A stretch of DNA of 43,173 nt from a virus (taxonomy: Duplodnaviria; Heunggongvirae; Uroviricota; Caudoviricetes). This document shows positions 1 to 31,671 of the stretch, in pieces. Position numbers and translations under genes: made by a program. The stretch lies in the IMG/VR virus record IMGVR_UViG_2844449076_000006; one strand, written 5' to 3'. The stretch's first letter is position 1, and every line of letters begins with the position of its first letter. The notes beneath the pieces are model-generated. The model did not search any database. It was given only the letters and a program-made list of their open reading frames with translations, and was not told the origin of the DNA.

Positions 1-519
1 TTATTGGTTAGCTGAAACAGAAACAGGGGGATTGGTGGGTGTCACCTGTTGCGTCTGCTCCTGAATGACAGGCTTTATGTCATCAGGAACAACCGGCGCG
101 ACGTTGCCTTTATGCTGGCATGGCAGTAACAAGCCGTTAAACAGATCGGCAGGCAGCGGGTCCGGCAGGTTGATATCGCAATGCGCAACACCACTCCAGA
201 ACACACTCATGTGTTCGCCAGGTTTCACCCCAGCCAGATAAACATTGCCGTCATCATCGACAAGGCCCACTGTCTGCTCGTTATCATTTTTTACTTCTGC
301 GCCAAACGGAGGATGGCTGCCGTCTTGTAAACGCAGCACCGCCATCGCTTTTTGACCACTGATGACGGCAAATTTGCGGTAGCCAATCGCCCCTTCAGTT
401 AGCGTGGCTTGTACCACCGACTGGGTTGCTTCGGCGTTTTCCGGCAGTTTGTTGAGGTCGATATACGCCTGATTGCGGTAATAGTTATTGACGTCAGAAA
501 CGACGGCTTTACCAAACAT
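1..519 (-). pseudogene. Fimbrial usher-like outer-membrane protein, C-terminal fragment; upstream part replaced by IS1
   Basis: 172-aa ORF ending at the window edge with usher C-terminal-domain-like motifs (GAIGYRKF, DGSHPPFGAEV, VGLVDDDGNVYLAG, LLLPC). IS1 end lies 24 bp upstream at 543, so the gene is 5'-truncated. Family assignment from recalled motifs only. Confidence 0.4.
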
Positions 520-557
520 ATTGGTATAAACAGCAGCACCGTGGTAATGACTCCAAC

Positions 558-1061
558 TTATTGATAGTGTTTTATGTTCAGATAATGCCCGATGACTTTG
601 TCATGCAGCTCCACCGATTTTGAGAACGACAGCGACTTCCGTCCCAGCCGTGCCAGGTGCTGCCTCAGATTCAGGTTATGCCGCTCAATTCGCTGCGTAT
701 ATCGCTTGCTGATTACGTGCAGCTTTCCCTTCAGGCGGGATTCATACAGCGGCCAGCCATCCGTCATCCATATCACCACGTCAAAGGGTGACAGCAGGCT
801 CATAAGACGCCCCAGCGTCGCCATAGTGCGTTCACCGAATACGTGCGCAACAACCGTCTTCCGGAGACTGTCATACGCGTAAAACAGCCAGCGCTGGCGC
901 GATTTAGCCCCGACATAGCCCCACTGTTCGTCCATTTCCGCGCAGACGATGACGTCACTGCCCGGCTGTATGCGCGAGGTTACCGACTGCGGCCTGAGTT
1001 TTTTAAGTGACGTAAAATCGTGTTGAGGCCAACGCCCATAATGCGTGCAGTTGCCCGGCAT
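558..1061 (-). CDS. insB: IS1 transposase InsB (made as InsAB' fusion by -1 frameshift)
   Basis: 167-aa [19 protein letters not shown]...NIKHYQ overlapping insA in the -1 frame, the standard IS1 arrangement. Confidence 0.95.
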
Positions 1062-1255
1062 CCAACGCCATTCATGGCCATATCAATGATTTTCTGGTGC
1101 GTACCGGGTTGAGAAGCGGTGTAAGTGAACTGCAGTTGCCATGTTTTACGGCAGTGAGAGCAGAGATAGCGCTGATGTCCGGCAGTGCTTTTGCCGTTAC
1201 GCACCACCCCGTCAGTAGCTGAACAGGAGGGACAGCTGATAGAAACAGAAGCCAC
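980..1255 (-). CDS. insA: IS1 transposase subunit InsA
   Basis: 91-aa [46 protein letters not shown], identical to canonical InsA. Confidence 0.95.
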
Positions 1256-1943
1256 TGGAGCACCTCAAAAACACCATCATACACTAAATCAGTAAGTTGG
1301 CAGCATCACCAGCCTTCTTGAGGCTACCACCTGTTTTCAGGTGTCATTCAGACGTGATTTGCCCCAGATTGGGAAAGCACGCTTTTTTCTCAGCTATCGT
1401 CCTCTTATTTTGCCGTTACATTTCTTTTTGCATTCTAATGATTAATTTACAATAATAATATCGGTAATTATTGAGTAATAATAAATTAATTATTGCAAAT
1501 GTAATTTAATTCCATCTTCGCGTTATATTCCAATCTTTAATCTCCGCATGGAACAAGTTGCATGCGTGACTATATTAAGACGACTTATAACCACCAAAAC
1601 ATTTGCTTTGCAAGCAAAAACAGTGACCATTGACTCTAAGAAAATTCCGATCTATTGTTAGGGTCATCAAAGTTACTTAACAGTATTCCGAAATGAAAAT
1701 ACAAAGCAAGCTAATTGTCTTATTAAACATTATTATTGCATTTATATTATTTGAGCTTTTAGCTCAAAAATTTGGTTTGAGTACATTATTTTAAAGCAAG
1801 ATAAACAATATCGGGCACTCTAGTTTTTATAATTAACAATTAAACGTCCATAAAATGTTATTTACTTTTCTTCGCTATTGTCATATCTTAATATAGTGGC
1901 TTACGCCACTCTACTTTCATCACATTTTGTACGTTTATGTACT

Positions 1944-1975
1944 CGCCATGAAGCTCTTTCATGGCGATTTTTTAT
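1944..1975 (+). terminator. Predicted Rho-independent terminator in AT-rich intergenic block (approximate coordinates)
   Basis: Perfect 9-bp stem CGCCATGAA / TTCATGGCG with 4-nt loop GCTC, followed by ATTTTTTATT on the plus strand. Confidence 0.4.
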
Positions 1976-2059
1976 TCTTAATCCAAGAACATACTCCCTA
2001 CCTATAGCAAAATCACTTTTTTAACAAAAGAATAACGTATTTAGGTAATCATTACGAAT

Positions 2060-2641
2060 TTACCCTATAGGTGCTACTGGCCATTCAATATCCGGTGCAG
2101 TTGATGTATCAACACGGTTCAGCAACACCCGATACTTTTTCCAAGCTTCCAGCAACAAGGTTTCTTTCTCCGTTGCGATCTCCAGATCCACAGCATCCTG
2201 AAGCGGCGCTATATGCTCACTGGCTACCTGCATCAGGCTGTTTTTTGTTTCTTCCGCCTCCCGGATCCGGAACAGTTTTTCTGCTTCCGTATCCTTCACC
2301 CAGGCTGTGCCGTTCCACTTCTGAAACTCCCCTTCCGGGGATAACCAGGTGACATTTTCCGGTAATGAGCCGAGTTCAGAAATAAATAACGCGTCGCCGG
2401 AAGCCACGTCATAAACCGTTTTACCCCGATGATCTTCAACGAGATGCCACGATGACTCATCACTGTTGAAAACAGCCACGAAACCAGCCGGAATATCTGG
2501 CGGTGCAATATCGGTACTGTTTGCAGGCAGACCTGTATGAGGCGGAATATATGCGTCACCTTCACCAATAAATTCATTAGTTCCGGCCAGCAGGTTATAA
2601 ATTTTTATGGTCCGTGCTTGTTCACTCATTCTGAATGCCAT
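2060..2641 (-). CDS. tfa: Tail fiber assembly protein Tfa
   Basis: 193-aa ORF directly downstream of stf; size, position and C-terminal motifs match lambda-type Tfa proteins. Confidence 0.85.
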
Positions 2642-30468: not shown

Positions 30469-30568
30469 AAGCTGTGTGACGAAGTAACCACTCTTAACAG
30501 CATAACCAATTTTGGTGATGCTGCCAACTTACTGATTTAGTGTATGATGGTGTTTTTGAGGTGCTCCA

Positions 30569-30844
30569 GTGGCTTCTGTTTCTATCAGCTGTCCCTCCTG
30601 TTCAGCTACTGACGGGGTGGTGCGTAACGGCAAAAGCACTGCCGGACATCAGCGCTATCTCTGCTCTCACTGCCGTAAAACATGGCAACTGCAGTTCACT
30701 TACACCGCTTCTCAACCCGGTACGCACCAGAAAATCATTGATATGGCCATGAATGGCGTTGGATGCCGGGCAACTGCACGCATTATGGGCGTTGGCCTCA
30801 ACACGATTTTACGTCACTTAAAAAACTCAGGCCGCAGTCGGTAA
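30569..30844 (+). CDS. insA: IS1 transposase subunit InsA
   Basis: 91-aa ORF identical to the InsA of copy 1. Confidence 0.95.
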
Positions 30845-31266
30845 CCTCGCGCATACAGCCGGGCAGTGACGTCATCGTCTGCGCGGAAATGGACGAACAG
30901 TGGGGCTATGTCGGGGCTAAATCGCGCCAGCGCTGGCTGTTTTACGCGTATGACAGTCTCCGGAAGACGGTTGTTGCGCACGTATTCGGTGAACGCACTA
31001 TGGCGACGCTGGGGCGTCTTATGAGCCTGCTGTCACCCTTTGACGTGGTGATATGGATGACGGATGGCTGGCCGCTGTATGAATCCCGCCTGAAGGGAAA
31101 GCTGCACGTAATCAGCAAGCGATATACGCAGCGAATTGAGCGGCATAACCTGAATCTGAGGCAGCACCTGGCACGGCTGGGACGGAAGTCGCTGTCGTTC
31201 TCAAAATCGGTGGAGCTGCATGACAAAGTCATCGGGCATTATCTGAACATAAAACACTATCAATAA
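30763..31266 (+). CDS. insB: IS1 transposase InsB
   Basis: 167-aa ORF identical to the InsB of copy 1. Confidence 0.95.
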
Positions 31267-31671
31267 GTTGGAGTCATTACCCCAATTTTTTACGTACGTA
31301 AACCACTAAATGATATTTGCGAGAATGCTACCGAGTATTGAAAACACCACTACAAATACATAAGCAAATCCCAACAAATAACCAACAAATAATTTCCAGT
31401 GTTATTTTTAGCCGGTTTAAATTGAACCTTCAAATTATAGAGCACTTATAAATAACAGCCGTTAATATAAATTGGCTAATAGATTTATTTTTATTCAGTC
31501 AAGAGCCATGAATAGGATTCGATAGAAAAAAGTTCAGATAAAAATAGAGATCTACTTCACAAATCAAACGAGAAACCAAAACTTACATCTTGAAATAATC
31601 ACATTGATTAGATGAATATTTATCGCGCAATGACATCATTTTTTAATAATAGTTCAAAAAAAGGGCTCACG

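Follow-up and report, generated by a model that had tools for sequence, protein, structure and literature searches.

The question raised by this locus is what, if anything, is encoded in a strongly AT-rich block that lies between an insertion element and the tail fibre assembly gene of a lambdoid prophage. The block occupies positions 1311-2059 of a stretch of 43,173 nucleotides (IMG/VR virus record IMGVR_UViG_2844449076_000006, Caudoviricetes), the whole of which is called the window here, and it is bounded by IS1 on one side and by tfa on the other. In the initial annotation it was described as a 750-bp non-coding block without open reading frames (ORFs) of 60 codons or more, carrying an intrinsic terminator and a candidate small hydrophobic ORF. 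Its composition is as described there, with a GC content of 0.315 (31.5%) compared with 0.518 (51.8%) for the whole window, 0.485 for tfa and 0.53 for IS1, and no ORF reaches 60 codons, because the longest ones that touch the block encode 52 amino acids (1297-1455) and 48 amino acids (1878-2024). The label "non-coding", however, is wrong, since the core of the block holds a coding gene. We consider it fairly probable that the plus-strand segment from about 1630 to 1975 is an autonomous phage moron, consisting of a gene for a YncL-like small membrane protein and a 3' untranslated region (3'UTR) that resembles a small RNA (sRNA). The gene is real and related to YncL, conservation extends to its putative promoter, its terminator and the 3' element, and the unit behaves like cargo. 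We infer that the unit is transcribed, that its product is inserted into the membrane, that an sRNA may be released from the transcript, and that the unit has a physiological role.

The small gene and its relationship to YncL

The small gene is a yncL-like ORF of 33 codons plus stop at 1693-1794 on the plus strand (MKIQSKLIVLLNIIIAFILFELLAQKFGLSTLF), whose translation is exactly that given in the initial annotation and whose product, MKIQSKLIILLNIIFALILFKLLAQKFGLYTLF in the allele comparison, is a predicted single-pass membrane protein. A 33-codon ORF alone is not above chance, because more than 10 ORFs of at least 20 amino acids overlap the 750-bp AT-rich block, and the case for its reality is thus a comparison of allele sequences rather than its mere presence. 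Two alleles of the module to which the gene belongs (1482-2059) were compared: allele A, the window type, and allele B, found in prophages adjacent to the sit genes, with about 79% DNA identity across the module. The ORF shows no insertion or deletion between the two, and such changes are found right after its stop codon and elsewhere in the flanks. The 18 nucleotide differences within the ORF are distributed over codon positions 1, 2 and 3 as 7, 1 and 10. By the Nei-Gojobori method, 11 synonymous changes at 19.7 sites and 7 non-synonymous changes at 79.3 sites were counted, which gives a ratio of non-synonymous to synonymous rates (dN/dS) of 0.09 (Fisher p 2e-5), and closer lineages contribute five synonymous and two non-synonymous changes more. 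The ORF keeps its length and frame, its dN/dS is 0.09 and its second codon positions hardly vary; it is therefore a real gene under purifying selection, and the earlier suggestion of a small-protein locus is thereby borne out. All other ORFs of at least 20 codons in the module are interrupted in allele B except a minus-strand ORF of 24 codons (1888-1962). The latter was rejected as a gene, as it has changed only non-synonymously and would start within the terminator stem. Conservation of the hairpin and the small ORF in relatives had been posed beforehand as a test, and both are kept in the diverged allele B. Two diverged alleles were sufficient to tell a real microgene from many chance ORFs in AT-rich DNA.

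The only family matched by the product in NCBIfam, with both alleles, was YncL (NF000537, stress response membrane protein). The score was 25.0 bits for allele A (E 1.3e-5) and 23.5 bits for allele B (E 3.7e-5), compared with 68.6 bits for YncL of K-12 itself, and no significant match was found for the peptide in Pfam (no family at E <=10), PHROGs or PADLOC (no hit). In BLASTP against K-12 YncL, 11 of 28 residues were identical (39%) and 18 of 28 were positive in an ungapped alignment starting from Met1 (E 2e-7). None of 20,000 composition-preserving shuffles of the peptide reached the observed score of 60, and their mean was 20 +/- 4. Ten alignment columns are invariant across alleles A and B and YncL, including S5, L10, N12, A16, L19, F20, L22, F27 and G28. 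Because the sole family match falls below the family cut-off, and in view of the ungapped alignment and the shuffle test, the sequence of the small gene product is best described as that of a distant YncL-like paralogue, not an equivalog, and of a predicted membrane protein. YncL is an inner-membrane protein of 31 amino acids that is induced by heat and in stationary phase, and its production leads to sublethal partial depolarisation, nucleoid condensation, slowed metabolism and lower viability (PMC12542507).

Searches for further members of the family returned the same few sequences. Degenerate ORF patterns in IMG/VR and in metagenomes recovered solely alleles A and B and an A24D variant, and phmmer against 1.84 billion representative proteins recovered only the peptide itself and a frameshifted variant. 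When species-representative genomes were scanned with a pattern from the peptide alignment, 512 pattern matches were obtained and none was confirmed by tblastn. A tblastn search of the phage collection with the peptide gave nothing, probably owing to low-complexity masking. Literature searches with the RNA and peptide sequences of the unit also gave nothing relevant.

Putative promoter, terminator and the conserved 3' element

Upstream of the gene, a consensus scan identified a putative sigma-70-type promoter, TTGACT-17-TATTGT, at 1630-1658 on the plus strand. Allele B holds TTGACT-17-TATCGT at this site, and it is the sole plus-strand promoter call there. Downstream, an intrinsic terminator with a 10-11-bp stem-loop and a U-run is found at 1943-1975 (plus strand), with the stem at 1943-1967 and the T-run at 1968-1973. 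The stem has 11 pairs, five of them G-C, followed by TTTTTTATTC, and the sequence reads CGCCATGAA-GCTCT-TTCATGGCG. The plus-strand terminator noticed earlier is thus present and strong, with one trivial correction: its loop is GCTCT rather than GCTC, as one T had been missed. When the block was scanned for terminators, two sites were called, compared with 0.6 +/- 0.8 in shuffled sequences. The one at 1943-1975 is the only terminator call in allele B, and its stem is invariant across eight sequence variants, with changes confined to the loop, the closing pair and the tail. The second call is a palindrome within the ORF (1750-1768, plus strand) that is not conserved; it was rejected as a terminator, since its stem is destroyed in allele B and no call is made there. 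From the promoter and terminator kept in allele B, a transcript from about 1665 to about 1975 is likely, and therefore a leader of 27 nt and a 3'UTR of about 180 nt are predicted.

The last part of this putative 3'UTR is conserved beyond its surroundings. Between alleles A and B, 1895-1975 is 94% identical, compared with 66% for 1795-1894 and 68% for 1976-2059 (Fisher p 6e-7). An 84-nt RNA from this region is predicted to fold with -26.7 kcal/mol (z -6.4) into a structure in which 18 nt of U/A-rich single strand separate a 6-bp hairpin from a second, small one, with the 10-bp terminator last. The sRNA-like body ahead of the terminator, at 1895-1942 on the plus strand, accordingly comprises the first hairpin (1895-1910), the single-stranded U/A-rich stretch (1911-1928) and the small hairpin (1929-1942). 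The eight variants differ from one another in loops, at wobble positions, in terminal pairs and in the U-tail. Two independent patterns, one for the 3' element and one for the degenerate ORF codons, each recovered 48 loci in IMG/VR, and as 47 of the 48 were recovered by both, the ORF and the 3' element form one unit; in metagenomes, the same alleles only were found. With a covariance model built from the variants, no further copy was detected in the window or in 34 other loci, save the copy cut by IS1 at the locus that we call L066 (loci other than the window carry L numbers and their own coordinates). At that locus (L066 3160-3247, minus strand), an IS1 end interrupts the sRNA-like element just ahead of the terminator stem, and this insertion is the third independent IS1 event within the AT-rich module.

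Rfam provided no family for the element. Two scans of the window gave no match at threshold inside the block, and the strong match to IS009 lies in tfa. All sub-threshold matches were to enterobacterial Hfq-type sRNAs, lay on the same strand and ended at this terminator; the best was MicC (RF00121) with 22.8 bits against a threshold of 90, and others were Esr41 (RF02676, 15.6 against 102), Aar, Hrs12 and RseX. A 2026 preprint places the prophage sRNA PasB near IS009. Identity with PasB was rejected, as PasB sits between tail genes I and J of PP6 in enteropathogenic Escherichia coli (EPEC) and its probe is absent from the window when up to three mismatches are allowed. The tail-fibre end of EPEC PP6 is different, and its annotation shows no module of this kind. 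The covariance-model and homology search proposed in the initial annotation thus yielded a match of the ORF to YncL and no RNA family at threshold.

These observations raise the alternative that the main product of the unit is an Hfq-dependent sRNA of about 80 nt (1895-1975), which would pair with host mRNAs via CUACUUUCAUCACAUUUU, the ORF being secondary or the transcript being dual-function. Such an sRNA might arise from its own weak promoter, TTTACT-16-TATCTT (1862-1889), or by cleavage of a longer transcript. We regard this as possible and as clearly less probable than a cargo unit built around the small gene. It is favoured by the fact that 1895-1975 is the best conserved segment of the block, by its fold and typical architecture (a 5' hairpin, a U/A-rich single strand and a U-tailed terminator), by the uniform nature of the sub-threshold Rfam matches, and by the precedent of lambdoid prophages that carry such sRNAs (the Pas sRNAs and Esr41). 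However, no Rfam family is reached at threshold, PasB is excluded, and no covariation is seen. The candidate promoter matches the consensus at 8 of 12 positions and was not called by the scan, and the 3' element was never found without the ORF. Possible targets of the single-stranded stretch within the window were no better than those of shuffled seeds, with a best non-self value of -18.4 kcal/mol compared with -15 to -22 kcal/mol. It is also evident from the clear coding signature of the ORF that the protein matters, and a pure sRNA locus cannot explain this signature. The earlier proposal of a small-RNA locus is therefore plausible for the conserved 3' 80 nt (94% identity, z -6.4), and it is not backed by Rfam membership or covariation.

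A second alternative, also suggested by the initial annotation's comparison of the peptide with small type I toxins, is that the unit is similar to type I toxin-antitoxin systems, in which a hydrophobic membrane toxin would be held by an RNA antitoxin for prophage maintenance or abortive infection. The peptide is indeed small, hydrophobic, charged at its ends and predicted to span the membrane once; when its relative YncL is produced, the membrane is depolarised and viability falls (PMC12542507); and the missing Shine-Dalgarno sequence together with the long conserved 3' region recalls tightly controlled toxin mRNAs. Nevertheless, we consider such a system very improbable. The peptide has no match to Hok, Ldr, Ibs, TisB, ShoB or any other toxin family in Pfam, NCBIfam or PADLOC, and YncL, the only family that it matches, is itself not classed as a toxin of such systems. 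On the minus strand, the scans called no terminator and no promoter common to both alleles, so that the sequence gives no sign of a conserved antisense RNA. The conserved RNA element lies downstream on the same strand, without convincing pairing to the 5' region of the mRNA. A hok-like fold-back was also considered and rejected, as no consistent pairing of the 3' element with the 5' end of the mRNA was found. The resemblance to type I toxins noted earlier is thus not sustained.

The module as phage cargo and the remainder of the block

The block of the window is matched at >=99% identity beside tfa at the bio-proximal end of lambdoid prophages located between ybhB and ybhC, which is the lambda attachment site. 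The module at 1482-2059 follows tfa in prophages at three chromosomal sites, namely the lambda site, ydfJ (Qin; 96% identity) and a site adjoining sitABCD (78-93% identity). The segment 1396-2059 is carried by 831 of 5426 complete E. coli genomes (about 15%), with up to four matching places per genome. The module is also present in three distinct sequenced phages, ev099, mEp332 and PhiR70_1, for two of which a host strain is stated. The small ORF is unannotated in every listed record. The only "hypothetical protein" genes annotated here are those at L006 2754-2867 (plus strand), which corresponds to the window ORF 1548-1661, and at L007 3968-4135 (plus strand), which spans the site of the IS1 junction. 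The window ORF 1548-1661 is broken in other alleles, and the conserved 33-codon gene was missed by the annotators.

The exchangeable nature of the module was seen when 56 IMG/VR loci were compared, in which tfa is >=94% identical to that of the window and the downstream sequence is present. The full module was found at 27 loci and unrelated cargo at 28, and the remaining one (L066) has only the tfa-proximal end, cut by IS1. Examples of the alternative cargo at the tfa-distal site are a Pin-like invertase and a putative methyltransferase. In prophages at ydfJ (Qin) and at sit, the left border of the module (L003 4900-5000, L009 2900-2995 and L010 2900-2995) is a fragment of the 3' end of tfa. 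As this fragment is oriented like the intact tfa on the right of the module, the cargo is bracketed by direct repeats of the tfa end, and these repeats may serve as recombination handles for movement between phages. The DNA directly upstream of the promoter (1482-1629, plus strand) is conserved and possibly regulatory; it is 75-88% identical in allele B, where all of its ORFs are broken.

Autonomous promoter-gene-terminator cassettes of the lambdoid phages HK97 and HK022 were reportedly defined as morons by Juhala, Hendrix and colleagues. The present unit fits this classic definition, because it alternates with other cargo, deviates in composition and has a private putative promoter and terminator. 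The possibility of a silenced moron had been mentioned in the initial annotation, and the moron part of it agrees with our results: promoter, ORF and terminator are kept as a unit, and at the tfa-distal site this unit alternates with several other cargoes. Late transcription past tfa would run antisense through the unit, which suggests that the small gene is expressed in the lysogen rather than in lytic growth.

The remainder of the block has a different history, as partial matches split the block into three parts (1311-1395, 1396-1481 and 1482-2059). Positions 1396-2059 have a GC content of 0.294, compared with 48% for 1311-1395, which is hence not AT-rich. The middle part (1396-1481) is an AT-rich, lineage-specific spacer restricted to full-length matches (280 genomes and four phage records), and the tfa 3'-end fragment takes its place in the alleles found at ydfJ (Qin) and at sit. 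The outer part (1311-1395, 85 bp) is a relic, cut by IS1, of a widespread prophage-end module that was formerly next to tRNA-Ser, and by itself it is matched (93-100% identity) at the ends of many lambdoid prophages that occupy other sites in the chromosome. In phage ev099, this sequence extends to the left into a 3' fragment of tRNA-Ser, together with some 340 bp of core DNA shared by 5423 of 5426 E. coli genomes. Because of this continuation, 1311-1395 is the inner border of an ancient prophage end, formerly in direct contact with tRNA-Ser, which we take to be serU in K-12. In ev099-type phages (L007 3551-4085), the core DNA and the tRNA-Ser fragment sit between tfa and a gene for an AraC-family regulator. 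The fragment is followed in L007 by about 195 bp typical of prophage ends that adjoin this tRNA, of which the window's 1311-1395 is the right-hand end. The chromosomal piece in ev099 looks like a pickup by past aberrant excision or by recombination between prophages. The earlier idea of a degraded prophage end is thus right for 1311-1395 and wrong for the remainder of the block.

On the left, the block is bounded by IS1 (543-1310, minus strand, 768 bp), which is 100% identical to the window's copy at 30514-31281 and whose flanking bases show no target-site duplication. Beyond it, in the left flank (1-542), lies the 3' part of a fimbrial usher gene (1-519, minus strand; Pfam Usher/PapC_C) that is 100% identical to yfcU. 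As target duplication is missing and yfcU lies on the other side, an IS1-mediated rearrangement appears to have joined the prophage end to the distant chromosomal yfcU; yfcU is normally far from the lambda attachment site, which points to an inversion or deletion via IS1 at this junction. At least four further IS1 copies or fragments are present in the window (30514-31281, 35990-36220 with 38351-38891, and 42461-43173), one copy being split by an insertion of about 2.1 kb, which indicates an IS1-rich host genome. In strain 2009C-3133, IS1 is found at the identical right junction, where it replaces 550 bp that are kept in IS1-free relatives. In these relatives, the AT-rich region continues for 756 bp to a gene on the opposite strand that encodes an AraC-family regulator similar to YdeO and GadX. 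This gene (L007 2501-3253 and L001 4501-5244, both minus strand) is transcribed divergently from the small gene, at a distance of about 1.4 kb on its left. The first 2.7 kb of the window, in which yfcU lies beyond the IS1 junction, do not contain this regulator gene, and the copies of allele B lack it too. The unit itself is intact in the window, and IS1 took only DNA further upstream, including the regulator gene of the relatives.

On the right, tfa (2060-2641, minus strand; Pfam Caudo_TAP, 4.6e-44) is convergent with the small gene and is followed by a side tail fibre gene of 1029 amino acids on the minus strand, so that the order in the window is the yfcU 3' part, IS1, the AT-rich block, tfa and the side tail fibre gene. 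The match to the Rfam "sRNA" family IS009 (2100-2298, minus strand; 218 bits compared with a gathering score of 117) lies wholly within the tfa coding sequence, and at this locus IS009 is probably a conserved protein-coding piece rather than an independent RNA gene.

In a region of this kind, it could be argued that the whole block is non-functional debris of the b-region, that is, AT-rich filler linked to tfa with incidental features. Its lack of annotation in every listed record, the abundance of relics around it (IS1, the tRNA fragment, captured chromosomal DNA and IS fragments), the repeated insertion of IS1 and the lack of expression evidence are all consistent with this. Neutral DNA, however, is not expected to show a dN/dS of 0.09 with a 7/1/10 codon pattern, an indel-free frame beside indel-bearing flanks, or an 81-nt island of 94% identity between flanks of 66-68%, and the unit is kept in three distinct sequenced phages as well as in 15% of complete E. 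coli genomes. We therefore consider the debris explanation very improbable.

Possible function and comparison with known systems

Taken together, the favoured moron reading can be outlined as follows. The predicted sigma-70-type promoter at 1630-1658 would drive a transcript of about 310 nt ending at the 1943-1975 terminator, and this transcript would encode a single-pass membrane protein of 33 residues, a distant prophage-borne relative of YncL. The last 80 nt or so are probably a stabilising 3'UTR and may be freed as an Hfq-type sRNA. By analogy, the protein may act in the inner membrane of the lysogen as a lysogenic-conversion factor, for stress tolerance or for the exclusion of other phages. 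The unit would probably be silenced by H-NS much of the time, and by antisense late transcription in lytic growth.

Several points weigh against this reading. First, the selection test is essentially one deep comparison, as only two well-separated alleles exist, and the family is confined to E. coli-type lambdoid prophages. Second, the ATG is not preceded by a recognisable Shine-Dalgarno sequence (…TATTCCGAAATG), compared with AAGGTGG in K-12 yncL, and the match to YncL is under the curated cut-off (25 compared with 35 bits). Third, among eight variants none of the 21 pairs of the 3' element shows a compensatory double change; the changes are one-sided and wobble-compatible, with a few broken terminal pairs. 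In closer lineages, the 3' element is not better conserved than its flanks, and a 31-nt pattern of it had no exact match in 185,579 species-representative genomes. Finally, neither expression nor ribosome-profiling nor proteomic evidence came to light, the peptide sequence is absent from the literature searched, and the proposed physiological role is drawn solely from the analogy with YncL.

A bolder version, which we consider unlikely, is that the transcript has a dual function: it would be the mRNA of a YncL-like membrane-depolarising microprotein, and its conserved 3' end would be set free as a novel Hfq-dependent sRNA, by which host gene expression would be rewired in about 15% of E. coli strains. 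If this were true, protein and sRNA could jointly set the lysogen in, for example, a low-energy, phage-refractory or stress-tolerant state. More simply, as it has its own putative promoter, sRNA-like tail and terminator, the unit can be seen as ordinary but overlooked phage cargo. Roughly one in seven complete E. coli genomes carries the gene, as do sequenced lambdoid phages, and it is absent from every annotation inspected; it was likely overlooked because it has only 33 codons, lies in AT-rich DNA and is not preceded by a match to a ribosome-binding site. What is new here is the unannotated gene; the kinds to which it belongs, the small membrane protein family and phage morons, are known. 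The YncL family is thereby extended from the core chromosome to phage cargo, which makes a natural mobile variant available for asking what depolarising microproteins do for the cell or the prophage, and with the attached 80-nt element comes a concrete candidate for a new prophage sRNA.

Compared with YncL of K-12 (b4598), the prophage protein is of near-equal size (33 and 31 amino acids), aligns without gaps from Met1, and has one hydrophobic span flanked by basic residues on both sides with a similar hydropathy profile. The genes differ in their setting, a prophage moron downstream of tfa in contrast to the chromosomal patD-yncL-ortT locus, and the small gene lacks a Shine-Dalgarno sequence and has a promoter and a 3' region unlike those of K-12 yncL. 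With type I toxins such as Hok, Ldr, Ibs, TisB, ShoB and ZorO, the unit shares a short hydrophobic single-pass peptide and a location in AT-rich, horizontally acquired DNA, but it matches none of their families, and neither an antisense or divergent sRNA partner nor a long structured 5' untranslated region was found. The 3' element is similar to the prophage Hfq sRNAs PasA-D, Esr41, AgvB and AsxR of pathogenic E. coli in its intergenic position near tail genes of a lambdoid prophage, and to these as well as to the 3'UTR-derived CpxQ and SroC in its length of about 80 nt, 5' hairpin, U-rich single strand and U-tailed terminator. It differs from all of them in having no membership by sequence or covariance model and in being always linked to a small ORF, and as an sRNA it is a candidate. 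A further parallel is that with phage morons, as the unit is a small gene with its own putative promoter and terminator, a deviant GC content (29% compared with 52%), presence or absence at the same site among near-identical phages, and an orientation opposite to the late operon. It differs from them in that the cargo is unusually small, with 33 codons, and in that it is followed by a long 3'UTR which is better conserved than the small gene itself.

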